From the NCBI GenBank assembly GCA_963718875.1, contig OY970378.1:324396-388395 (forward strand): a DNA stretch of 64,000 nt, read 5' to 3'. Source of the stretch: Candidatus Parcubacteria bacterium (GTDB lineage Bacteria; Patescibacteriota; Saccharimonadia; UBA4664; JBIOIQ01). The notes under the pieces were generated by a model that saw only the letters and a list, made by a program, of their open reading frames with translations, was not told where the DNA came from and did not search any database. The number at the start of each line of letters is the position of its first letter. The first letter of the stretch is position 1. A program made the translations under genes and the position numbers. Shown here piece by piece: positions 3,690-58,529 of the stretch.

Positions 3690-3851
3690 AAAGATATTAT
3701 AGCTTGATTTGAAATTCCTTACCCAAGGCTTTATAGTGAGTAGCACGCGTTTTACTTAGGAGTTGTTAGGTATAGCAGTATCTCTCACCCGAAGGTCTTG
3801 CGGGAAACAGTGAAGCTTTGATCAAGGCCACTCTATCAAAGGAGCAGAATC

Positions 3852-4556
3852 GTGGGTCGGGTACTGATGGTGATTGGTGGTTCCGGTACTATTGGTGAGG
3901 CGGTCATCGCACAGGCTTTGGCGGACGGCTTTCGGGTCGCTGCCACTTGGAACAGCACGGTTCCTGCAGATAGCGATGACGTGCTATGGGTCCGCTGCGA
4001 TGTAGCTGATCCCGCGTCGGTTGACTCTGCGTTTACCCGGGTCGAAGCCGACCTGGGAGATGTAGAGATCCTGGTGTTCAATGCCGGCGTCAACGCGGAC
4101 GGCATGGCTCTTCGGATGACGGATGAGCAGTGGAGGAATGTGCTCAGTACAAACCTGGATGGTGCATTCTACGCCTGCCGCCGGGCTATGGCCAAGATGG
4201 TGCGTGCTCGCTGGGGTCGAATGATCGTGGTTGGCTCTGTGGTTGCTTTAACCGGAAGCGCGGGTCAGGCAAACTACGCCGCCGCCAAAGCGGGGCTGAT
4301 CGGGCTCGTTAGGGCGTTGGCGCGCGAGCTTGCCGGCCGAAACATCACCGTCAATGTGGTGGCGCCAGGTCCGATTACATCGCGAATGACCTATGCGCTG
4401 ACGTCCGAAAGGCGTGCTGAAATCGTGGCGAAAGTGCCGTTGCGGCGCCTCGGCGAGGGCCAAGATGTGGCTGAGGCGGTGGCGTTCCTGTGGTGGGCTG
4501 GGTACGTGACCGGGGCGGTCATTCCCGTTGACGGCGGTCTGGGCATGGGCCACTAG
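3852..4556 (+). CDS. SDR-family oxidoreductase (FabG-like), in a high-GC island
   Basis: GGSGTIG Rossmann motif, NAG, and YAAAKAG (YxxxK) catalytic motif. GTG start with AAGGAG Shine-Dalgarno. Local GC about 65% by eye against about 45% flanks. Confidence 0.75.
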   Translation: MGRVLMVIGGSGTIGEAVIAQALADGFRVAATWNSTVPADSDDVLWVRCDVADPASVDSAFTRVEADLGDVEILVFNAGVNADGMALRMTDEQWRNVLSTNLDGAFYACRRAMAKMVRARWGRMIVVGSVVALTGSAGQANYAAAKAGLIGLVRALARELAGRNITVNVVAPGPITSRMTYALTSERRAEIVAKVPLRRLGEGQDVAEAVAFLWWAGYVTGAVIPVDGGLGMGH

Positions 4557-4751
4557 GCGGGTGAGGCTGACTGTGTTGCGGGGCGATGGGATAGTCCCGC
4601 TGCCTCGCAACACCTTTTATTTTAAGTCGGATTTGTTGAATAACCGGCGTCATTCGGCTATACTTTCAGCTTGTACCGAGTACAATTTTCAATTTTCATT
4701 CAAAGTGCGCTTAATGAAACTTGAAACTTTAAGTAAATGAAACTTAGATAT

Positions 4752-19030: not shown

Positions 19031-19096
19031 AACTACTACCTTTAAATCTTAGTTAGTTTAGCTGATCTGTAGCTTAAAGTCAACGAGGCTAGATTG

Positions 19097-19154
19097 AAAA
19101 GTCGGACTTCAAATCTGGTTTCTAGGACGATGAAGATTAAAGTCCGACTTTAAT
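19097..19154. repeat. family B hairpin element (AAAAGTCGGACTTCAAATCTGG ... GATTAAAGTCCGACTTTAAT)
   Basis: Compensatory change (CGGAC/GTCCG) preserves pairing. Confidence 0.6.
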
Positions 19155-19233
19155 ACGGTTTGTAAATGAAAACGGGGGAGGCGCCGGGCGGATGCCCGGG
19201 CGTCTCCCCCGTGGGGGACTTGTTGTTCGACTG

Positions 19234-19734
19234 TCAGCGTCGGCTGGGGGTGCCGCCCCTGACCACCCGTTGGGTGGGGGTGGGGTTAGCTGCCGTAGGG
19301 CGGCGGTCTGTCTTGGCCCTGCGGATTCGGGCCGCACGCTGCCTGGCGCTTCTGTCCAGGACAATGCGCTCGTCGATCGAGTGATAGAGACGGTCGATCA
19401 GGCCAGTGATCACTTCGGCGATGAGGATGCCGATGAAGCCGATGACGGAGGCGCCGAAGAAGACGATTGGCAGGTGGAGGTACGGGTGGAACTGGTCGAG
19501 TTCGGAGGCGACGGTGTTGGTGATGCCCGTCCCGATGAACAAGAAGAAGACACTCGCCAACAATCCACCGATCTCGGAGTCGAAGATCATGGTCATCAGG
19601 TAGCGGCACATGGCGCCGACGGTGAGAGCCACGACGGCAACGATCATGCCGATCTCGAGCATCATGACGAACTCGACGAACCCGTTGTGGCTCGCGTAGA
19701 GGTGCCACAACGGAGCGATCATGCCGAGGAGCAT
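19234..19734 (-). CDS. hypothetical membrane protein, high-GC island (start uncertain)
   Basis: 4-5 TM helices and an Arg-rich C-terminal tail. GC about 62% by eye. The opposite-strand ORF 19192-19818 is acidic low-complexity and judged antisense noise. Confidence 0.4.
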   Translation of the reverse strand: MLLGMIAPLWHLYASHNGFVEFVMMLEIGMIVAVVALTVGAMCRYLMTMIFDSEIGGLLASVFFLFIGTGITNTVASELDQFHPYLHLPIVFFGASVIGFIGILIAEVITGLIDRLYHSIDERIVLDRSARQRAARIRRAKTDRRPTAANPTPTQRVVRGGTPSRR

Positions 19735-19951
19735 GACGAGGGTAGCGTTGGCCGCCCTCTGGAAGGAAGATTTCAAAGTTCTACCTGCTTTCGGAAAGGG
19801 TGGTTTCTCCACCGGTAAACTTACGAGCCCATTATTACGCTTTTTGACGTAAATGTCAAGGATTTTCTTTCTTCGCCCCACTCTAGACCGAACTCAGCGT
19901 AATGTAGAACGAAAGATCGGAGGCTAGTGTGCTTAATGCTACAATGACATT

Positions 19952-20569: not shown

Positions 20570-20980
20570 GTTTAGTTTTTTCGTTGGTGCGATTGATTAG
20601 GGTTTAGATCTTAGAATTTAGTGCTTATAATATAGGTAGCTCTGCGACATTGGTGAATCTTGACCAAATTTTCCTGTTAACATTCTATCGGGTGTCTCGC
20701 TTTAGCGAGACGAGCCTAAGATTGTTCCAGCCCGTGGGCTGCGGACTGAAGGTACCCACCTGTCTTAAGGCAGGGAAGAATGGGTTAAGTTACCGTGGAG
20801 CGGAGTTATGTGATTATCGCTTTGAGGGACCTTAACGGTCTCTTTTAAGTTATAATCACAAGGACCCAGGGTGCAAGAGAGAAGGATGCAAATAAATCTC
20901 TAATCTCAAATCTACACCCTAAGTATTGTAATTTGTTTCTTGGGGCTTGTTTCTTCCTGGTAAAAAAGAAAATTGGAAAT

Positions 20981-21001: not shown

Positions 21002-21016
21002 TGAAAATTGATGCCG

Positions 21017-21090
21017 GGGTGTGGCGCAGTTGGTAGCGCGTACGGCTGGGGGCCGTGAGGCCGCAGGTTCGAGTCCTGTCACCCCGACCA
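21017..21090 (+). tRNA. tRNA-Pro (anticodon GGG)
   Basis: Acceptor CGGGGTG/CACCCCG, anticodon stem TACGG/CCGTG with loop CTGGGGG, T-loop TTCGAGT, encoded CCA. Confidence 0.8.
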
Positions 21091-21133
21091 GCTTTTAAGG
21101 CCTATTTCTTTATTTTTATAGGACAACACGAAT

Positions 21134-21152
21134 CCAGAGGTTTAACCTCTAG
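21134..21152. repeat. cassette-boundary palindrome copy 1 (CCAGAGGTTTAACCTCTAG)
   Basis: 19-bp near-perfect palindrome 44 bp downstream of tRNA-Pro. Confidence 0.8.
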
Positions 21153-21257
21153 CTCTGATAATACTTTCAAAATGCCGTCCTGAAACTTCAATTTATTGAT
21201 TGAAAACTCGGGATGGTACCGGAGACCCTGCGCGTGCACGGTCTCCGGTGGTTGTTG

Positions 21258-21992
21258 CTACCTCTCGTGAGGTGGGCGGAAGAGGATCCGGAGGTCCTCC
21301 TTGTAGCCCAGTCGCTCGAGGATGAGCGAGAGGACTCCGTTGAAGCTGTTCTTGGAGTCGGGACAAGCTTCCTCTAGTGAGTAGCTCAGGACTTCCACCC
21401 CCGGACGAACCGGAAGGTAGCCGTGGCGGTCCTTGCTGTGCGGGTCGCGCACGTGGACTGTGAGGCTCTCTAGCGTCAGCTCGATGTGCTCGAGCGTTCC
21501 GCTGAGGTGGTACTGCCCGTTGATGCGGTAGATGACGATCTCGCCTCCGATGTAGCCGGAGAGTTGATCATTGGCGATGAGGTCGGCGATCCAGTTGCGC
21601 TTGGGGATGATGCCCCACGCGATGGCTCGTGGGCCCTTCTCACCCGGTACTACCTTCATGATGATGCGACTGGGGTTGCGCCCGCGCGAGCGGACGTAGC
21701 TCTCAGTTGAGGGCTTGTCGGTCAGGACGGGTTCGTCGGCGGTGCCGGTGACCTCACGGCATCCCTCCTTGCGGAAGAACACCGAGATGGGTCGACGCTG
21801 CTGATCGCGAACGCCGCTCTGTTCGGCGAAGCCGAACCCCTTGGCATCATCGTAGTGCGTGACGTATCCCGTCGCGATGACGGGGGTGTTGCTGGACTGG
21901 TTGCTCACGGTACACTCCTTCGAAGATCGTTCGGATGAACTGGTACAGGCTTGTGAGCCCGCACCTCTCGAAGAAGGTATCGCGTCTTGCAC
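21258..21992 (-). CDS. cold-shock-domain-like protein with C-terminal extension, high-GC island (start uncertain)
   Basis: GYVTHYDDAKGFGFA resembles the CSD RNP motif. GC about 60% by eye. Confidence 0.4.
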   Translation of the reverse strand: MQDAIPSSRGAGSQACTSSSERSSKECTVSNQSSNTPVIATGYVTHYDDAKGFGFAEQSGVRDQQRRPISVFFRKEGCREVTGTADEPVLTDKPSTESYVRSRGRNPSRIIMKVVPGEKGPRAIAWGIIPKRNWIADLIANDQLSGYIGGEIVIYRINGQYHLSGTLEHIELTLESLTVHVRDPHSKDRHGYLPVRPGVEVLSYSLEEACPDSKNSFNGVLSLILERLGYKEDLRILFRPPHER

Positions 21993-22143
21993 AAGATGCG
22001 GGAGTAGGAGGGGTTACCTACATAAGTTGGGCTTTCTCGGTTTGTTGCCGGTGCACCACGCCACAGCCGATCCTCCTTTCAAAAGTAGTCGGATGGACGA
22101 AGATAACTAGTATTATATCATACTCTTATAACAATTGCAAAAT

Positions 22144-22162
22144 CTAGAGGTTAAACCTCTGG
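22144..22162. repeat. cassette-boundary palindrome copy 2 (CTAGAGGTTAAACCTCTGG, reverse complement of copy 1)
   Basis: Exact reverse complement of copy 1. Confidence 0.8.
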
Positions 22163-22176
22163 CTATACCGACGTAG

Positions 22177-23022
22177 CTAGCAGTTGGGTTTTAGTGCGGC
22201 CGCTCCCTCGTTGCCAATCTTTTGCATCGGCGTAGCTCGGTTCCAGACGTAGTTAAATAGCTGTTTTTGCATATGGGCCAAAGCTTTGCTGTGGACCTCG
22301 ATGCAAAAGATTTCGCCATTCAAGTAGGTGTACATGGCAAAAGTGTTGTTATAAATCAGTAGCTCAAATTTAACCTCGAGCTCCTTGGGGTCGATGTAGC
22401 GTGGCTCCCAAAATTTTACAACTTGCTCGGTAACTTTTGTCCAGGGAGGCATTTCAGTTAAGCTAGTGAGTTCGCGGGTGTGGATTTTGCGCTTCACTAA
22501 GTCTTGACGGACTTCTTCGGCAAAGCCAAAATCCAGGAAAGCTGACATGTCTTTGAGCTCATAGATGAGTAATTCGTCTTTGGCTTCGAGTGAGTTCAAT
22601 GTGATCTGCTTAAGACCCTCAATGCCTGAGTAATAGCGCAGACGTGATCCCATACCGTCGTCGCTTAACAGATTGGCAATATCGCCGAACACGCTGGGGA
22701 GTGAATGTTTAAGCTCGGCTGTCTTAGCTTCTTGGGTTTTAATTAGACCTTCAAGGTTTTGATAGGGTTGAGCCTGGAACCGTAAACCGCTTTCATTAAC
22801 AAAACTTTTGGTGAGGTTTTTGTCACGTAAACGCTCGAGCAAGCGATAAACCTTGCTGCGGCCAATTTTGGTTAAACGGCTAAGCTCAAGAACCGAAATG
22901 GCGTCGTGTTGCAATAAGGTTAGATACACCGTTGATTCGTCGGCATCGAGGCCCAACGTTATCAAGTGAGCAGTTATATTGTCTATTTCTGTGGACATGC
23001 TTGTTTTATTCATACTGTACAA
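22177..23022 (-). CDS. TrmB-family transcriptional regulator
   Basis: N-terminal TrmB HTH (LGLDADESTVYLTLLQHDAISVLELSRLTKIGRSKVYRLLERLRDKNL) plus a C-terminal sugar-binding-like domain. Confidence 0.65.
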   Translation of the reverse strand: MYSMNKTSMSTEIDNITAHLITLGLDADESTVYLTLLQHDAISVLELSRLTKIGRSKVYRLLERLRDKNLTKSFVNESGLRFQAQPYQNLEGLIKTQEAKTAELKHSLPSVFGDIANLLSDDGMGSRLRYYSGIEGLKQITLNSLEAKDELLIYELKDMSAFLDFGFAEEVRQDLVKRKIHTRELTSLTEMPPWTKVTEQVVKFWEPRYIDPKELEVKFELLIYNNTFAMYTYLNGEIFCIEVHSKALAHMQKQLFNYVWNRATPMQKIGNEGAAALKPNC

Positions 23023-23079
23023 TCCAGGTTATGTGTGCTATGTTAAGGTATAAATACACATTTAGCAAGGATATAATCA

Positions 23080-23847
23080 ATGTCTATTTCTGTAGACAGC
23101 ACGATTAAAACTAAAACGGCTTTGGTTACGGGTGTATCCCGAGGAATAGGGAAAGCTATTTGCGAACAGTTGAGCGTTGAGGGGTATCGAGTTATTGGTA
23201 CGTACAACCAGGGGCTGGAAGAGTCGCAAACGCTGCAGCGAGAGTTGGGTGAGGTGGAGTTTTTTCAGGTCGATTTTGGCAATCGAGCTGAAACCACCAC
23301 CTTTTTAGAGGTTTTGAAGGGGCGAAAGTTTGAGGCCATTGTTAATAACGCCGGGACTATCGACTTTCAGCAGTTTAGTAAGTATGAAATGAAGGGTTGG
23401 GATAATACACTTGAGGTCAATTTGGGTGTGCCTATGTTGCTGGTGGCGGGCTTGCAGCATAATATTTGTGATGGTGGTTCGGTAGTTAATATTGCCAGCA
23501 CAGATGGATCGATAGGCTCGTTTGCAAGCATTGCTTATTCAGCCAGCAAGTCGGCCTTAATGAATGTCACCAAGAGTCTGGCTAATAATCTGGGCTCTCG
23601 GGGTATACGAGTAAATGCTGTGGCACCTGGGTGGATTAATACCGATATGGATACAGAAGTAGTGGGGGAGTCAGAAAAGCTGACACCGCTCGGAAGAAAT
23701 GGTACACCGGGGGAAGTTGCGGATTTGGTGAGTTTTTTATTGTCGGATAAGGCTGCTTTCATTACTGGAGCTACAGTTGTCATCGATGGCGGATACACCT
23801 GCGTCGATTACGTTATGAAGCTGGAAAACGAGTTGGAACAGGGCTAG
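23080..23847 (+). CDS. SDR-family oxidoreductase (3-oxoacyl-ACP reductase-like)
   Basis: TGVSRGIGKA Rossmann motif, NNAG, and YSASKSA (YxxxK) motif. Stop codon TAG lies inside palindrome copy 3. Confidence 0.75.
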   Translation: MSISVDSTIKTKTALVTGVSRGIGKAICEQLSVEGYRVIGTYNQGLEESQTLQRELGEVEFFQVDFGNRAETTTFLEVLKGRKFEAIVNNAGTIDFQQFSKYEMKGWDNTLEVNLGVPMLLVAGLQHNICDGGSVVNIASTDGSIGSFASIAYSASKSALMNVTKSLANNLGSRGIRVNAVAPGWINTDMDTEVVGESEKLTPLGRNGTPGEVADLVSFLLSDKAAFITGATVVIDGGYTCVDYVMKLENELEQG

Positions 23848-23862
23848 AGGTTAAACCTCTAG
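23844..23862. repeat. cassette-boundary palindrome copy 3 (CTAGAGGTTAAACCTCTAG, perfect)
   Basis: Perfect 19-bp palindrome. Confidence 0.8.
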
Positions 23863-23958
23863 CTGATTTTAAGACGAACCCGCCCCGTCAAGCCCATCGT
23901 TGTATATTCACATTAAACGGTTTTTTTAAATAAGACTACACTCGGCTATAATTGACTT

Positions 23959-24723
23959 ATGAAAGGTGATATACCGTTGCGGTTTACTAAAGGAGTGGAA
24001 GCGATTAAATCGCTACAATACTACCCACGTTATCAGGCGGCCTTTATATTTGGTTCGGTAGCCGAAGGCACAAGTACGGCCAAAAGTGATCTTGATGTAA
24101 GAGTGCTAGTCGACCAGGATAACGACTGTCAAAACGTAAATCATCCAATGTTTGATGAATATAAAATGGATCTATCATTTCGATCATTTGCTCAGATCAA
24201 GCTTGATGCCGAAAAAGATTTTGAGAAGCGTGAAAGACGACCCATCTTAGCTACCTCTAAGATTATTTTTGACAAGACGGGCGAAATAACAAACTTACAA
24301 AGTAAAGCCCGCCAGGTAGAACCAGAGAGGCTTAAGGGTAAAGACTACTTATTTATCCAGTTTATGCTTTATCATGCCAACGACAAGGTAGAGCGTTATA
24401 TTGAGGAGGATCCGCCGTCGGCGCTTTATTCTATGCATGCCAACATTGGTGATATATTGAAGTACCATTACCGTTTGAATGGTCGATGGTGGGTGAGTAG
24501 TAAGAGGATATTGGATGATTTAGAGACATGGGATGCCGAACTGGCGGGTTTGTTAAAGAAGTTTGTTGCCACTCCTGACGTAAGAACAAAATATAGTTAT
24601 TGGTCAGCTATTATTGATCACGTGACTGCTCAAATGGGAGGACGGCAGCCAATTGCGGAAAATAACTGCGATTGTAATGTTTGTAAGGTGGATATGGCCA
24701 CTTTAATGGGCGAATCTGGCTAA
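23959..24723 (+). CDS. nucleotidyltransferase-fold protein, AadA/Lnu-like (candidate aminoglycoside/lincosamide nucleotidyltransferase)
   Basis: FIFGSVAEGTSTAKSDLDVRVLV matches the GS-x9-13-DxD minimal NTase motif at the position seen in ANT(3'')/Lnu(F)-type enzymes. About 250 aa with a helical C-terminal domain. Confidence 0.5.
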   Translation: MKGDIPLRFTKGVEAIKSLQYYPRYQAAFIFGSVAEGTSTAKSDLDVRVLVDQDNDCQNVNHPMFDEYKMDLSFRSFAQIKLDAEKDFEKRERRPILATSKIIFDKTGEITNLQSKARQVEPERLKGKDYLFIQFMLYHANDKVERYIEEDPPSALYSMHANIGDILKYHYRLNGRWWVSSKRILDDLETWDAELAGLLKKFVATPDVRTKYSYWSAIIDHVTAQMGGRQPIAENNCDCNVCKVDMATLMGESG

Positions 24724-24771
24724 AGCGCGGCGATTCGCCGCTAAGGATAGAAAAACCTTCACCTAGCAGAT

Positions 24772-24790
24772 CCAGAGGTTTAACCTCTGG
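24772..24790. repeat. cassette-boundary palindrome copy 4 (CCAGAGGTTTAACCTCTGG, perfect)
   Basis: Perfect 19-bp palindrome 24 bp upstream of rnhA. Confidence 0.8.
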
Positions 24791-24813
24791 AAAACAATTG
24801 TTATGATAAGATC

Positions 24814-25242
24814 ATGTCTATGACATATGATGAAATAAAGATTTTTACTGATGGCGGGTCGCGCGGGAACCCTGGTCCTGCGGCGTCGGGTGTTGTAATA
24901 TTGACAACGCAAAATGACGTGATTGAAGCGTTTGGGCGTTTTCTGGGCTCAACCACAAATAACATAGCAGAGTGGAGTGCTGTTGAGTTTGCCCTTGAAG
25001 AAGCCAAAAAATATAGCCCAAAACGAATACATTTTTTTATGGACAGCGAATTGGTTTGCAAGCAACTTAATGGTCAATATCGCGTGAAGCATCCCGGACT
25101 CATTCCAATACATGAAAGGGTGGTAAGGCTAGCCAAGCAGTTTGACGTTAATTTTCAGCACGTTTACAGAGAACATAATAAGTTGGCAGATGCGCAGGTA
25201 AACATTGCGATTGATGCGGCGCTGGGTATAAAGCCGAAATAG
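24814..25242 (+). CDS. rnhA: ribonuclease HI
   Basis: FTDGGSRGNPGPAASG ... EWSAVEFAL ... REHNKLAD catalytic DEDD pattern. Confidence 0.8.
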   Translation: MSMTYDEIKIFTDGGSRGNPGPAASGVVILTTQNDVIEAFGRFLGSTTNNIAEWSAVEFALEEAKKYSPKRIHFFMDSELVCKQLNGQYRVKHPGLIPIHERVVRLAKQFDVNFQHVYREHNKLADAQVNIAIDAALGIKPK

Positions 25243-25292
25243 TTTCAATGACATCAGTAACATGATGTTTGGAGGTGAGAGCTGGGTCAACT

Positions 25293-25322
25293 AAAAAACT
25301 GCTCAGGTTCGAGCAGTTTTTT
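25293..25322. terminator. bidirectional intrinsic terminator between rnhA and rnpB
   Basis: AAAAAACTGCTC-aggttc-GAGCAGTTTTTT: 6-bp stem with an A-tract on one side and a T-tract on the other. Confidence 0.55.
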
Positions 25323-25323
25323 A

Positions 25324-25720
25324 GTTGCCAGACTATCTGTAAGCCGGATTTTGTATCTCGCCAGAAGGCGGGACGATGACCATCTATCTAGTCCCATAAT
25401 TGCTTATAGGATCAAGCGGGTTCAAACATTGGGGAGACGAGCAGCCTCTTATCCCAACTCCTTGCAGCAGACGGGGTTTACCTCCCTTTAATGTCACCAT
25501 TATTGGCTGAGCGCTTTTACCGCTCTCGTTTCACCCTTACCTCCACTTACGGAGGCGGTCTCGTTTCTGTGGCACTTTCCCTAGGCTTTAGTGTAAATGG
25601 ATTCTCGAGAGCTCCCATTTACACTTACTCCCGGTTGCCGTTAGCAACCGTCATTGCTCTATGCTGTCCGGACTTTCCTCTCCACGTTAATGGAGCGGCC
25701 ATCCAATAGTCTAGCGAGGT
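25324..25720 (-). ncRNA. rnpB: RNase P RNA, bacterial type A
   Basis: Minus strand shows GAGGAAAGTCCGGAC (P4 5' strand), GGGAAAGTGCCACAGAAA, AGGGTGAAACGAGAGCGGTAAAAGCGC and ACAAAATCCGGCTTACAGATAGTCTGGC (P4 3' strand plus P1). P1 pairs GCTAGACTAT with ATAGTCTGGC. Ends are approximate to within 5 nt. Confidence 0.75.
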
Positions 25721-29596: not shown

Positions 29597-29971
29597 ATGC
29601 CATTAATAAGATGTGATTACTCTAAAGAACAAATTTCTGAGCAGCAAATTAGCGAGATAGTAAAATTATTACTCAAAGTGTCTGAAGACGCGTTTAATTA
29701 TTCTCCTGAGCAAGCACTTGAGTTGGTGTCGATTTTTTCTGCTCCTTATGGTAAGTCGGATCATTCGGCCGCTGCAGCAGAAATTGAATTAAGAGCTAAA
29801 ATTGGTGAATTTGATCATCCTGCTATGTCTAGGGATGAGGTGCGTGTGCTGAAAATGCAACCTTATGAGGTGGCGTTAAAAGATTATATTCAAAGAGAAA
29901 ATCTTGTAAACGGTATTGTATTTACGATTACTTTTGAAGATTGGAAAGTTTCGTTTTTGCCTGGATCCTAA
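29597..29971 (+). CDS. tautomerase-superfamily-like protein (N-terminal Pro1; Tautomerase_3-like), native GC
   Basis: Begins MPLIRCDY. About 124 aa. Confidence 0.35.
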   Translation: MPLIRCDYSKEQISEQQISEIVKLLLKVSEDAFNYSPEQALELVSIFSAPYGKSDHSAAAAEIELRAKIGEFDHPAMSRDEVRVLKMQPYEVALKDYIQRENLVNGIVFTITFEDWKVSFLPGS

Positions 29972-30089
29972 TTGACTAGTTTAAAAAGCATTCGAGCCCG
30001 CGTTAGCGGGCAAGAATGCCTACTAATCACGGGCTCGGCGGAGTGACCTAGTATTTAATGGACTAGGTACGGCTCCTTGCACTGCACGG

Positions 30090-30467
30090 TTACTTCGTTT
30101 CGGTCCAGACGTAGGGACCGAGCTTGGTCCAGCTTGCCACCTTGCGGTCGGTGGCCAGGAGTTCCTTGACCCGCCTGTCGATTTCGAGGCCGCGCTCTGG
30201 CAGATTGGCAGCGCGGTCTGGGTAGTCCATGGCCTCGATGTCGAGCACGACGCCAGCGTTGCTGTGGTTGCCGGGACCGGAGACGTCGAACGGATAGAAC
30301 TCCGTGTCCTCGTCGGGGTCGAGCTGGATGAACGTGCCGGCATCGCCGATGGGGTTGGGAACGAAACAGGAATGCACGGCGGCGACGATCGCGCGGATGC
30401 CAGCCTCGTTGTCCCTCACTGTCTGAACAAGGTCAGGATCGCTTATGTAAGCCTTGATGAGGGGCAT
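30090..30467 (-). CDS. tautomerase-superfamily-like protein (N-terminal Pro1), high-GC xenolog of the adjacent gene
   Basis: Begins MPLIKAYI. About 125 aa. GC about 60% by eye. Confidence 0.35.
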   Translation of the reverse strand: MPLIKAYISDPDLVQTVRDNEAGIRAIVAAVHSCFVPNPIGDAGTFIQLDPDEDTEFYPFDVSGPGNHSNAGVVLDIEAMDYPDRAANLPERGLEIDRRVKELLATDRKVASWTKLGPYVWTETK

Positions 30468-30611
30468 GTGAGCCCTCCTCTGTGTTTGGGGGTGTGCAAG
30501 GGGCGTCTCGGAACTGCCGAGTCAGTCGCTTCTGTCTCCAGATTTGATCACTACATGATATCACAAGTGTCATAAAAAGTCAAACTATATTTTTTGAGTT
30601 TCACCTCAATC

Positions 30612-36907: not shown

Positions 36908-36962
36908 TTAAGTGTTGTTGATGGTTGACATTATTAAACCCAATAGGTATGCTCGAGCAGGT

Positions 36963-37742
36963 ATGAACGAAGATTTACTACGATCAATTGAAGATTTGGG
37001 TTTGAGCCAGAAAGAGGCCAGAGTTTACGTAGCTAATTTAATGCTTGGTCCTGCCACTGTTCAAAAAATTGCCGATCAAGCAGAGATTAAACGTGTAACA
37101 ACCTATGTAATTTTGGAATCCTTGGCTGCGCTCGGCTTAGTGAGCCAAAGCAATCAGGGTAAAAAAACCTATTTTACAGCCGAGGATCCTATAAGTCTGA
37201 GGCGCTTGTTAGATAAAAAAGAGCAGCAAGTTAAAGAACAGAAGCTTGGATTTGAAAATGTTTTACCAGATTTGCGAGATCTTCGTGGTATGCCTGCTGA
37301 TAGCCCCAATGTAAAGTTTTATAATAGTACGGAAGGTATTAATAGCCTGATGAAAGTTTTTTTTGCCTTGCAGGCTGAGGCCGGCAAGAAAATACTATAT
37401 GGCATTAGTAATTTAGACCAAGTAGATGAGTTTTTTCCCGAAATTGAGCGCAATTTATTTAATCCTGAGAGACTAAAAGCGGGGATTAAAAGTCGATTCC
37501 TTTATACTTCGTCTAAAGGACCTGTCTTGCATACCACAGACGCGAAAAGTTTTCGTGAGTCTAGATATATACCCATTGATAAGTATCCTTTGAACGGGGA
37601 TTTTACTATTCTTGGAGATACGATTGTCATGTTATCATTGGTTGGAAAACCCTTGGGCATATCTATCAAAAGCGTAGAAATAGCAATTGGATTGACAGCG
37701 ATATTCAATTTGGCCTGGGATGCTGCTGAAAAATACAATTAG
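36963..37742 (+). CDS. TrmB-family transcriptional regulator
   Basis: LGLSQKEARVYVANLMLGPATVQKIADQAEIKRVTTYVILESLAALGLV. Confidence 0.6.
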   Translation: MNEDLLRSIEDLGLSQKEARVYVANLMLGPATVQKIADQAEIKRVTTYVILESLAALGLVSQSNQGKKTYFTAEDPISLRRLLDKKEQQVKEQKLGFENVLPDLRDLRGMPADSPNVKFYNSTEGINSLMKVFFALQAEAGKKILYGISNLDQVDEFFPEIERNLFNPERLKAGIKSRFLYTSSKGPVLHTTDAKSFRESRYIPIDKYPLNGDFTILGDTIVMLSLVGKPLGISIKSVEIAIGLTAIFNLAWDAAEKYN

Positions 37743-38508
37743 ATTTTAAATTCAGAGACCTACCTACTAAATATTGTACGATTGAGCTTGTGTTTTTTAG
37801 TAGTAATTATTATTGACTCAGTGTTGCTTAAAGTGTAGAATTGACTCTGCTTCGAAGCGCACCGTTACTTGGTCGCAGAGATGCACTCCGGCATGACAAG
37901 TCGTCTTCCGGGGTTACCATAGGCCACTCGTACCTGATAGAAGGAGGGGATGATGGGACGTTGAGCCCAAAGTTCTCATATTCTACTCGCGTACCGGGTT
38001 GCCGCCAGGCAGATCCGAAGGCTATCTCGGCCTGAAGTAAATCCTGAGGGCAACCCTGGGAACTAGATCTGCGATCCTCCTTCCCAGGGGAGGTAGCAGA
38101 ATGGTCATAGGCGCCTGCAGCGCCAACGGCCCCAAAGCGAGGAGATGAACTCCGGCCCACGGTCAACTATCGACCTCGCTGCGGTTTGGAAAGACTGCAA
38201 GGCCGCGCCGCAATGGCAGCCGCTTGCAGCAAAAACGCGGAAAAGACTTTCGCGTTTTTGTCCAGGTGAGAACGTGTTCTCACCAATATTTGCTCGTGAC
38301 GACCTCATCGACAACCCCCCCACGTTACCGATGAACGTCACGAGCAAAATTTCCCCGGTAACGGCAACTTCCTCTCCGCTCACTCTCTTTGTAGTGTCGG
38401 AGCGGAGTCGTTACCGGGGTAGTGTCCCCAATGATCCTGGATTTTTTCAGGGTCTACCATAAGGCCCTTAGTTTTCAAAAGGAACTCGGGGTCTTTTTCT
38501 TAACTTAA

Positions 38509-42430: not shown

Positions 42431-42580
42431 TTAAAGTGTGCAGTTCGTTGTAGTTACTATCTTATGTGTGTGTGCGTAGCTTTACTATTGAAAGATTATC
42501 CAAAAATGTGTTCGGTTTTGAGGCGAACAAAGTGCTGTATATGCTGATTACTTTTCTAATCGTTATCTGTATCTGCTATT

Positions 42581-42639
42581 GATAAAAACATTGTTGATGC
42601 CCCGACCAAGCGCAACAAAATGCGCAAGGTCGGGGCATC
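42581..42639 (-). terminator. intrinsic terminator downstream of the Flp pilin gene
   Basis: 12-bp perfect stem GATGCCCCGACC/GGTCGGGGCATC (42596-42607 and 42628-42639) followed on the minus strand by a T-rich tract. Confidence 0.55.
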
Positions 42640-42656
42640 TGGGTGCGGATGCCGTG

Positions 42657-42830
42657 CTACTGAGTGGCTGTAGTCGCGGTGGTGGGTGGGGTGTTGGAGC
42701 TGGTGTCTTCGCCCATGGTGGTCAGGGCCACGATGCAGACCACGGCGATGAGGGCCATGAGTAGGGCGTACTCGATGAGAGCCGAACCCGCCTCGGTTGT
42801 GCTCCTGCGAATTGCTTTCATGTGCTGCAT
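42657..42830 (-). CDS. Flp/Fap-family type IVb pilin (Tad pilus major subunit), high-GC island
   Basis: MKAIRRSTTEAGSALIEYALLMALIAVVCIVAL matches the Flp motif. GGGAGG Shine-Dalgarno. GC about 60% by eye. Confidence 0.6.
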   Translation of the reverse strand: MQHMKAIRRSTTEAGSALIEYALLMALIAVVCIVALTTMGEDTSSNTPPTTATTATQ

Positions 42831-42902
42831 GAAACCTCCCTGTAGTTGGAACATATATGGTAATGGAAACTGATGCTCCTGCTGTCAAACGGGGCAAGGC
42901 CT

Positions 42903-43217
42903 CTAGTGTATGTGTCTTTCGGCCGCCCGTCCGAGCTCGTCACCAACGCGGCCGTCTCGTTCGCCCACAGACTGCGCGAAAGCTTGGCCTCTAACCTTGT
43001 CGAGCTCCCAACCGGCTACAAATACTGCCACCAGAAGTGGCAAAGTCAGAGTCTTGCACACAAGGGTGACCCATCCTGGGAGTTGTTGCTCAAAGCCGTA
43101 CCAGGTCATGGCCACAACAAAAGCCACGGCTGCTAGAGTCAGAAAGCGTGTCCATGCCGCGCCGTTCTTGGCGGGCCGAAGACGACTCAGCTCTGTGAGA
43201 TCTGCAAAATCATCCAT
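42903..43217 (-). CDS. hypothetical membrane protein in the high-GC Flp island (strand call tentative)
   Basis: Two TM helices. Co-oriented with the Flp gene. The overlapping plus-strand ORF 42873-43136 was rejected. Confidence 0.3.
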   Translation of the reverse strand: MDDFADLTELSRLRPAKNGAAWTRFLTLAAVAFVVAMTWYGFEQQLPGWVTLVCKTLTLPLLVAVFVAGWELDKVRGQAFAQSVGERDGRVGDELGRAAERHIH

Positions 43218-43324
43218 TTCCCGCTCCTAGCGTCGACGTTTCTGCCTGCGGATGCAGGTTTAAAATATAATAATATAATTGCTAGCACTTGTAAAATATT
43301 CTTGATTAACTACCCTCAAAAATG

Positions 43325-43852: not shown

Positions 43853-43883
43853 CAAAAAAACCTGAGGGAACTCAGGTTTTTGT
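43853..43883. terminator. bidirectional terminator hairpin after ssrA
   Basis: AAAAAAACCTGAGggaaCTCAGGTTTTTGT. Confidence 0.5.
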
Positions 43884-57782: not shown

Positions 57783-58529
57783 CTACCGCTTAATCGGAAT
57801 GGCTTTTTCCCAGCGCATGTAAAAAAAGTCGCGCAGCGCCTTTGTGAGCTCAGGGCTAGTAATAACCATGCCGGTTCTCTCGGTTGTTTCCTTGGGGTTG
57901 CTGGCAACCAAAACGGCTTTTTGACTATCAAATATTAGTAGATGAAAGCCGCTGTCGGGGTAATGTGAGACCTCAACTCCCATGGCAACCCAGCTACTGA
58001 GGAGTGATTGGTTATTTTTATCATATTTATGGAACATAAACTTACATTCGACGTTGCGAGCTAAAGCATCTCGAGTAGAAAGCTTGATTTCATCTGGAAC
58101 GGGTTCGCCAATTGATATGACAAGTATTTCTTGCTTGGCAAAGTGCGAAAGCTCAACAAACTTATCAAAAAATTGGTTTTGGCCTGAAATGAAATTTATG
58201 AGGGTTTCGTCCTGGGGGATATGCTTATTAAGGCTTGCAAGAGCTTGTAGTTTAGATGAGCTCAGCGCTTCAGATTGATATCGAGAATACGCCTCAATTG
58301 CTGCCTTCGGAGGTAGAGCTTGATATTTAAGAGGGCTGGTAGCTAGCTCGACTACCATTCCGTAGACCTGTAGTTTATCAAGTAAACGATAAACCGAATT
58401 TACAAGAACGCTAATTTGCTCTGCCGCTTCCGACACTGTCATTGAGCCCTTCTTAACCAGAGCCAGATAACAAAGTGCTTCGTTGTGGGTTAAGCCTAGT
58501 TTTATAAGAGAGTTGGATTGTTTTATCAT
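57783..58529 (-). CDS. TrmB-family transcriptional regulator
   Basis: LGLTHNEALCYLALVKKGSMTVSEAAEQISVLVNSVYRLLDKL. Confidence 0.6.
   Translation of the reverse strand: MIKQSNSLIKLGLTHNEALCYLALVKKGSMTVSEAAEQISVLVNSVYRLLDKLQVYGMVVELATSPLKYQALPPKAAIEAYSRYQSEALSSSKLQALASLNKHIPQDETLINFISGQNQFFDKFVELSHFAKQEILVISIGEPVPDEIKLSTRDALARNVECKFMFHKYDKNNQSLLSSWVAMGVEVSHYPDSGFHLLIFDSQKAVLVASNPKETTERTGMVITSPELTKALRDFFYMRWEKAIPIKR

Follow-up and report, generated by a model that had tools for sequence, protein, structure and literature searches.

Four REP-like palindromes in a hypervariable tRNA-Pro to rnhA interval of a Patescibacteria genome

Systems of repetitive extragenic palindromic (REP) sequences and REP-associated tyrosine transposases (RAYTs) have been studied mostly in Proteobacteria. 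Patescibacteria genomes are about 1 Mb in size and generally repeat-poor, and no description of REP sequences or RAYTs in Saccharibacteria or other Patescibacteria was found in the literature searched. Here we describe four copies of a short palindrome in a 64-kb stretch of a Patescibacteria genome (contig OY970378.1, positions 324,396 to 388,395; the whole stretch is referred to as the window), all of which lie between the gene for tRNA-Pro(GGG) and rnhA. An earlier note on this DNA had interpreted the palindromes as possible recombination sites of an integron-like cassette array anchored on the tRNA gene. That interpretation is attractive but is not supported by the evidence presented below, and the elements are best read as REP-like singlets of a RAYT-associated family.

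The closest described systems are the REP and REPIN (REP doublet forming hairpins) systems of Escherichia coli and Pseudomonas fluorescens SBW25, with their RAYTs. As in those systems, the element described here is a short hairpin palindrome in extragenic 3' spacers. At other Patescibacteria loci it forms inverted doublets around a short HUH/Y1 gene in a conserved chromosomal place, and the window copies resemble the perfect 'long palindromic singlets' of the described systems (PMC3337134). Unlike in those systems, the copy number is low, with 4 copies in 64 kb at one hotspot and few copies outside RAYT flanks elsewhere, and the host has a reduced genome of about 1.2 Mb with no RAYT near the window copies. 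A further difference is that the coding sequence of the RAYT gene of this family includes a copy of the palindrome and ends with a stop codon that is part of the downstream copy.

The palindrome and its occurrence at RAYT-like loci

The pattern CYAGAGGTTWAACCTCTRG matched four sites in the window (21134-21152, 22144-22162, 23844-23862, and 24772-24790), compared with a chance expectation of about 0.03 matches, and none of 100 shuffles gave four. The coordinates and sequences in the earlier note were all confirmed, as was the exact reverse complementarity of copies 1 and 2. Its statement that the palindrome is found nowhere else in the 64 kb holds even when 5 mismatches are allowed, and the 11-mer core AGGTTWAACCT is likewise restricted to the four palindrome sites.

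None of the copies was assigned a strand. Copy 1 (CCAGAGGTTTAACCTCTAG; arms C/T) lies between the convergent 3' ends of the tRNA-Pro gene and a high-GC gene, 43 nt from the former, where 44 bp had been reported. Copy 2 (CTAGAGGTTAAACCTCTGG; arms T/C) is located 14 nt beyond the stop codon of a gene for a TrmB-family regulator. Copy 3 (CTAGAGGTTAAACCTCTAG; arms T/T) becomes a perfect 21-mer with its flanking G and C and contains, as first noticed in the earlier note, the stop codon (TAG, 23845-23847) of a short-chain dehydrogenase (SDR) gene. Copy 4 (CCAGAGGTTTAACCTCTGG; arms C/C) is also a perfect 21-mer with its flanks and is located 23 nt before the rnhA ATG at 24814, or 29 nt before an alternative start at 24820, close to the 24 bp originally given. 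Three copies are wholly intergenic, and copy 3 overlaps only the SDR stop codon. All four copies, as well as a single copy in a related contig (L045), follow the 3' ends of genes, whereas the region of the divergent TrmB and SDR promoters is free of them. The palindromes of this genome do lie at the boundaries of gene units, as had been proposed.

The dyads are 19 to 21 bp long and would fold into hairpins with stems of 6 to 10 bp (at least 8 bp on at least one strand), 3-nt loops, and energies of -6.5 to -14 kcal/mol. This is the sole repeated hairpin among the 23 perfect palindromes of the window. No longer repeat unit is conserved outside the 19-21-mer; there is only a marginal CAATTGTTAT at nearly equal offsets after copies 2 (reverse complement) and 4, with a flank similarity score of 20 versus a null of 14.2 +/- 2.6 and a null maximum of 28. 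Rfam gave no match at the palindromes and, in the window, matched only tRNA and RNase P RNA.

Matches to the pattern were very rare: 9 stretches were found in 185,579 species genomes, 33 in 241 million metagenome records, and 6 in IMG/VR, nearly all of them single copies at the apex of unrelated longer hairpins. Two of the nine genome stretches belong to one Saccharibacteria metagenome-assembled genome (CAZNKJ01; also present as VAPL01 contigs), in which the palindrome is multicopy. One of its loci (L009) has an intergenic cluster of four copies. The other (L007) has doublets on either side of a gene for a 209-aa protein, plus one copy within the gene, and the copy at about L007:266-286 is identical to the 21-mer of window copy 4 (21/21 bases). 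The 209-aa protein matched Pfam Y1_Tnp above the cutoff, and its only NCBIfam match, which fell below the curated cutoff, was 'REP-associated tyrosine transposase.'

Two further loci (L046 and L048) were found by protein homology alone, independently of the DNA pattern. Their proteins are about 70% identical to the L007 RAYT-like protein, and each gene has perfect 21- to 28-nt inverted doublets with the core RAGGTTWAACCTY on each side. Doublets with spacers of 0 to 17 nt occur only at RAYT loci. The outer arm bases vary between L007, L046, and L048, the core is kept, and L048 has a 17-mer in common with window copy 4. The RAYT-like genes (L007:107-733, L046:6001-6633, and L048:6001-6630) carry their own palindrome at a conserved position in the coding sequence, where it encodes (S/I)RGLT(S/L), and have their stop codon in the center of the downstream palindrome. 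The gene is in the same context in L046 and L048 (LamG proteins, RAYT, gap-rpiB-rpe-tkt). More than 6,000 Patescibacteria proteins belong to the RAYT-like family, whose HFH (HUH) and YxHLNP (tyrosine) motifs are invariant. In its sequence layout, the design of L007, L046, and L048 matches the hallmark by which Bertels and Rainey (PMC3337134) defined REP/REPIN-RAYT systems. From one lineage to the next, the internal copy and the flanking copies at these loci change their outer arm bases in concert. This covariation might point to autoregulation or to the way in which the repeat arose.

On balance, these results favor the reading that the four window palindromes are singlets of a Saccharibacteria/Patescibacteria REP-type family with the core RAGGTTWAACCTY, a family that is associated with RAYTs in other genomes. 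Excision of the REPIN center is documented to leave long, perfectly palindromic REP singlets as a by-product (PMC3337134), and the perfection of the window copies fits such an origin. Copies 1 and 2 were also considered as the arms of one split REPIN, which was rejected because their inner and outer flanks are not complementary. By analogy with REP/RAYT and IS200/IS605 systems, a RAYT-like HUH/Y1 enzyme would recognize the hairpin in single-stranded DNA, nick it, and copy it. If this reading is correct, the family would provide a defined hairpin element, together with its candidate enzyme, for a lineage that became amenable to genetics only recently.

Several observations weigh against assigning the window copies to a REP family. 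No RAYT gene was found in the 64-kb window, and none of the best 120 RAYT homologues is on the contig of this genome, which is weak evidence against a close homologue there. Although NCBIfam REP_Tyr_transpos was the best match of the RAYT-like proteins, they scored 40 to 46 bits, versus a curated cutoff of 80. The window copies are singlets located 909 to 1,681 nt apart, with no inverted doublets, and are confined to 3.7 kb of the window, unlike the dispersed classical REPs. They are perfect or near perfect, whereas RAYT-flanking copies have an arm mismatch. Among the relatives compared, there was no collinear pair of filled and empty sites that would reveal a simple insertion.

The position of every copy just 3' of a gene would also be expected if the palindromes were ordinary terminators or 3' stabilizer hairpins of nonmobile origin, conserved by function and carried with genes or spread by local gene conversion. 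Three copies are followed by weak U-rich tails when read in the direction of the upstream gene (AUUUUG at copy 2 and CUGAUUUUAAG at copy 3), the minus strand of copy 1 was listed as terminator-like, and longer terminator hairpins with the 19-mer at their apex account for most of the unrelated database matches. However, copy 1 was the only copy to pass the terminator scan, and copy 4 lacks a U-rich tail. In the canonical terminators of this genome, such as those at 25288-25327 and 43856-43881, the stem is unique and is accompanied by a clear A/T tract, in agreement with the view of the earlier note that the palindromes are not ordinary terminators, and a separate G+C-rich hairpin precedes the palindrome at both the high-GC gene and a nucleotidyltransferase gene. 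The region shows no enrichment of terminator-like sites (4 observed versus 5.4 expected). A terminator function would leave unexplained the near identity of the copies beside unrelated genes and the presence of the same core around RAYT genes elsewhere. Therefore, we regard this explanation as improbable. On the favored REP-type reading, the hairpins at transcript 3' ends would insulate or stabilize independently promoted units and, by analogy with known REPs, likely serve in attenuation or 3'-end protection between units.

A genome-wide terminator or uptake sequence was rejected for this window because the other 60 kb contain no copies, with up to 5 mismatches allowed, and because the database stretches are so few and are mostly apexes of unrelated longer hairpins. 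The earlier note had named a generic REP element as an outcome that would speak against a cassette array. REP-type doublets around a RAYT-like gene in other Patescibacteria represent that outcome as to kind.

A perfect 19-bp dyad is also typical of the binding site of a dimeric protein, and the palindromes might be transcription factor operators, for example, for one of the three TrmB paralogues of the window, that coregulate the units of the hotspot. Copy 2 is located 3 nt from a -35 hexamer, copy 4 overlaps one, and the two share CAATTGTTAT. However, the similarity of these flanks is marginal, copies 1 and 3 are not beside a promoter, and other conserved dyads (TGTCTA-N6-TAGACA), which are also present in L045, occupy the divergent TrmB/SDR region. 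Operators would not explain the association with RAYTs. This possibility appears very unlikely.

Gene content of the interval in related genomes

The interval from tRNA-Pro (21015-21090, plus strand), which forms the conserved left edge, to the RNase HI gene rnhA (24814-25242, plus strand), the conserved right edge, spans positions 21091-24813, without strand assignment, and has a different gene content in every relative examined. RNase H homologues place the source organism in Saccharimonadales and the window on a contig of 1.19 Mb. The earlier note had suggested aligning the locus across strains, and variable genes downstream of tRNA-Pro were indeed found. Seven related Saccharimonadales contigs had six further gene sets between tRNA-Pro and rnhA, in which only the TrmB-SDR pair recurs. 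Contig L044 (RNase H identity, 78%) has tRNA-Pro, PNPOx, and rnhA; L043 (83%) has tRNA-Pro, a methyltransferase, a 184-aa protein, and rnhA; and L057 (83%) has the 184-aa protein and rnhA as in L043, with the left part beyond the contig. The order is tRNA-Pro, HIT, methyltransferase, and rnhA in L056 (80%) and a 135-aa beta-rich protein followed by rnhA in L058 (83%). The TrmB-SDR pair is found in L045 (81%), which has AAA_33, S66 peptidase, TrmB, SDR, Phd, PIN, and rnhA. The Joint Genome Institute contig of P0002 (JGI 3300071358, 5,594 bp; 89%) has possibly TrmB, then SDR, proteins of 137, 216, and 212 aa, and rnhA. Divergence between the window and its relatives starts right after the 3' end of tRNA-Pro and again at the start of rnhA. 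The same gene order as in the window was present in an independent assembly (Logan ERR12037361), and thus the arrangement is not an assembly artifact. These results establish the segment between tRNA-Pro and rnhA as a genuine, hypervariable hotspot.

The palindrome is not required for this variability. No copy was found in L043, L044, L056, L057, or L058, which carry other cargo; in particular, L043, L044, L056, and L058, whose DNA covers the interval or its rnhA-proximal part, have different cargo without copies. Therefore, the palindrome is not the recombination site behind the variability of the hotspot. L045 has a single copy, at a nonorthologous joint.

Saccharibacteria are capable of comEC-dependent natural transformation, in which DNA is integrated via flanking homology (PMC10633639). 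ComEC uptake combined with flanking homology is thus a plausible route for cargo exchange that needs no site-specific enzyme. Most likely, natural transformation would be followed by homologous recombination within the conserved flanks, and this, together with illegitimate joins inside the interval, would swap the cargo. The locus resembles the core-gene-flanked hotspots of other naturally transformable bacteria in having conserved edges (here tRNA-Pro and rnhA), unrelated cargo in each lineage, accessory or toxin-antitoxin-like genes among that cargo, and no integrase. It differs from them in that several internal joints are marked by hairpin repeats and in that some of the cargo has the composition of a high-GC donor. 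If the REP assignment is correct, the locus is a concrete case of horizontally acquired genes whose joints are marked by hairpin repeats, some of these genes having a composition like that of a high-GC donor such as the Actinobacteria on which these epibionts live, and the interval is a natural insertion-tolerant hotspot that might be suitable as a neutral integration site.

Recombination joints and site-specific alternatives

The copy in L045 (TCCAGGGGTTTAACCTCTGGA) is identical to the window palindrome at 18 of 19 positions and lies between convergent AAA_33 and S66 genes, at a site that is not orthologous to that of any window copy; that is, the insertion sites in the two relatives are nonorthologous. 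The flanking DNA is only 73% identical, and a near-identical copy at a nonorthologous joint in DNA so diverged indicates that the element moves or is constrained. Homology between the window and L045 is limited to the TrmB-SDR core (22199-23836), which has no palindromes in L045. On one side, it stops some 8 nt short of copy 3, at a replacement of the last three SDR codons (these and the stop codon are unlike those of L045), and on the other side about 36 nt from copy 2. In L045, 10 nt separate the palindrome from a relic of the TrmB 3' end that is 33 nt long.

This relic is part of a 33-nt direct repeat (L045:714-746 and 1822-1854; 85% identical) of the TrmB 3' coding end that brackets the S66 peptidase gene and the palindrome. 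From its sequence, the repeat resembles a scar left by an illegitimate insertion that was facilitated by homology, and the arrangement in L045 fits one homologous and one illegitimate crossover.

Three positions of the palindrome are variable: position 2 (C or T), its dyad partner at position 18 (G or A), and the center (T or A). There are two arm types, CCAGAGGTT ('C') and CTAGAGGTT ('T'), and copies 1 to 4 read C-t-T, T-a-C, T-a-T, and C-t-C, so that all four arm combinations are represented. Copies 3 and 4 have the form of reciprocal recombinants of copies 1 and 2, the center base included. Only one arm position is variable, and the odds that independent mutation would place four changes on one of nine arm positions are about (1/9)^3. 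However, with only three binary characters, the reciprocal pattern has a chance expectation of about 6% and is therefore suggestive only. The four arm combinations suggest an exchange of halves between copies. Identical, cruciform-prone repeats of 19 to 21 bp might be preferred points of breakage and exchange, and we propose that this is why homology with relatives ends beside the copies and why arm types are reassorted. Hairpins would then favor breakage or joining.

The same observations bear on the possibility that the palindromes are dedicated cassette sites at which a site-specific recombinase, whether integron, Xer/dif module, or Y1 driven, moves circular cassettes. The high-GC unit (21134-22162) and the nucleotidyltransferase unit (23844-24790) are exactly bounded by palindromes, and they flank the TrmB-SDR core that is palindrome free in L045. 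Copies 3 (T-a-T) and 4 (C-t-C) are those expected from the insertion of a copy-1-type circle into a copy-2-type site, and the S66 peptidase unit of L045 lies with its palindrome between direct repeats. However, the arm pattern is also predicted by REPIN-type exchange, and repeats that are just 85% identical fit homology-facilitated illegitimate recombination better than a fresh duplication of an att site. L045 has one palindrome for about four units, four relatives have other cargo and no palindrome, and at least five other high-GC islets of the window are without the palindrome. The 9-1-9 geometry lacks the 6- to 8-bp spacer used by tyrosine recombinases, and no recombinase was found among about 50 open reading frames (ORFs) scanned in the 64 kb, which include all nonoverlapping ORFs of at least 120 aa except one (29597-29971). 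Dedicated cassette sites are therefore unlikely.

A related proposal is that the palindrome-bounded units are themselves mobile, with a Y1/HUH enzyme (RAYT-like) or another enzyme cutting the hairpin and moving whole genes, including genes from high-GC hosts. It would be consistent with copies 3 and 4 as reciprocal recombinants of copies 1 and 2 and with the ending of homology with relatives at the palindromes. If it were correct, these units would constitute a gene cassette system in Patescibacteria that is served by a transposase in trans, but we consider it doubtful. IS200/IS605 elements and their transposase-less derivatives, the palindrome-associated transposable elements, are similar in having a hairpin at each end of the segment and an enzyme of the Y1 HUH family. 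They differ in that the high-GC unit has two hairpins that mirror each other rather than being direct copies on the same strand, there is no tnpA or tnpB, and no conserved cleavage tetranucleotide is definable from five copies.

Among specific site-directed systems, integrons were rejected. The observation of the earlier note that no integrase is present in the window holds for the ORFs scanned; there is no intI among them. Integron cassettes and their attC sites, including clusters of attC sites lacking integrons (CALINs), are similar in that unrelated genes are separated by a repeated palindrome at a strain-variable locus. However, attC sites are imperfect and 57 to 141 bp long, with R''/L''/L'/R' boxes and extrahelical bases, whereas the repeat here is a perfect 19-bp dyad without conserved flanks and has the order GTT...AAC, the reverse of RYYYAAC...GTTRRRY. 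The lack of a match to classical attC had already been recognized. In addition, the units carry promoter-like sites of their own and are not all in the same orientation, the variable cargo of L043, L044, L056, and L058 has no such site, and the palindrome is not private to this locus.

A tRNA-targeting island was also rejected. Neither the window nor L043, L044, or L045 contains a further match of more than 13 nt to the 3' part of tRNA-Pro, and thus there is no far-edge repeat, nor was an integrase found. The anchoring on the tRNA gene that the earlier note had envisaged is accordingly not supported.

Xer/dif modules require a 28-bp site with 11-bp arms and a 6- to 8-bp spacer, whereas the dyad here is 9-1-9 (7-5-7 at most) with nothing conserved outside it, and they were rejected. 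The pdif (XerC/XerD) modules of Acinetobacter plasmids are similar in that gene modules are bounded by short inverted sites in alternating orientation. They differ in having 28-bp, 11-6-11 sites, in being plasmid borne, as the locus here is chromosomal, and in that here there is no Xer gene nearby and variability persists without the site.

Genes, signals, and other features of the window

The high-GC gene (21258-21908, minus strand) encodes a protein of 216 aa and has a foreign composition of 61% GC. The gene is genuinely coding, with a GC content by codon position of 0.62/0.43/0.82. The description of its product as cold shock-like is supported for a cold shock domain of about 40 residues in the N-terminal half (E = 0.14 for the single sequence and 4e-5 with the family profile against cold shock proteins in the PDB) but not for the rest of the protein. 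The family is rare, with no relatives in a word-indexed search and about 70 in an exhaustive HMMER search. The amino acid composition of the homologues tilts toward high-GC organisms without pinpointing a specific donor. A G+C-rich hairpin directly 3' of the gene (21218-21249, minus strand) is probably its own terminator, brought in with the gene. A sigma-70-like promoter of native composition (22112-22140, minus strand; TTGCAA-17-TATAAT with TG), 3 nt from copy 2, faces the gene. Between the two is a 16-codon ORF (22014-22064, minus strand) with a strong GAAAGGAGG ribosome-binding site, which may encode a leader peptide.

Pfam confirms the assignments of the TrmB-family regulator (22177-23013, minus strand) and the SDR (23080-23847, plus strand) made in the earlier note. 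Two 18-nt direct repeats, 101 nt apart and assigned to no strand, lie over the starts of the two genes, one over that of TrmB (22980-22997; TGTCTAtttctgTRGACA, with an internal 6-6-6 inverted repeat) and the other over that of the SDR gene (23081-23098). Both are kept in L045 (2602-2626 and 2703-2727) despite 73% DNA identity. The TGTCTA-N6-TRGACA repeats are likely the TrmB operator.

A promoter-like site (23925-23952, plus strand; TTTAAA-16-TATAAT) is located 6 nt before the start of the nucleotidyltransferase gene (23959-24723, plus strand). The product, 254 aa, belongs to the Pol-beta superfamily; it has only a generic Pol-beta/NTP_transf_2 motif, and its description as AadA/Lnu-like is unsupported. 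Another promoter-like site (24780-24807, plus strand; TTAACC-16-TATGAT with TG), whose first hexamer is inside copy 4, faces rnhA, for which the alternative start at 24820 would give a 140-aa product. In relatives, rnhA overlaps or abuts the upstream gene, unlike in the window with its promoter-like site. No convincing match to PADLOC defense system models was found for the cargo genes, and no recombinase or transposase domain was found in the ORFs scanned.

Islets of about 0.6 to 0.9 kb with about 57 to 60% GC, in a genome of 45% GC, are located at 3819-4684, 19079-19818, 21193-22070, 29986-30553, and 42560-43259, and a weaker one is located at 37932-38322. Some have the coding signature of a high-GC donor, with a third-codon-position GC content of 0.79 to 0.82 in three. 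One is an SDR gene adjoining tRNA-Val, and one, between the genes for L28 and an M50 peptidase, is absent from L043. The islets suggest repeated small acquisitions, possibly with an actinobacterial host as the source.

Beyond rnhA, the RNase P RNA gene (25324-25714, minus strand), with a promoter-like site at 25751-25723, is inverted relative to rnhA in comparison with L043, L044, and L045; the inverted segment has no clear flanking inverted repeats. On the other side of the interval, the intergenic region between the M50 peptidase gene and tRNA-Pro (20626-20807) has about 70% identity with L043, a promoter-like site (20603-20631), and no Rfam match. Between a terminator hairpin/-10-like element (about 20825-20856) and tRNA-Pro, the window is about 150 nt longer than L043. 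The 64 kb contain three genes for TrmB-family regulators (22177-23013, 36912-37742, and 57783-58529) and two adjacent genes for PucR-type regulators at 598-2929.

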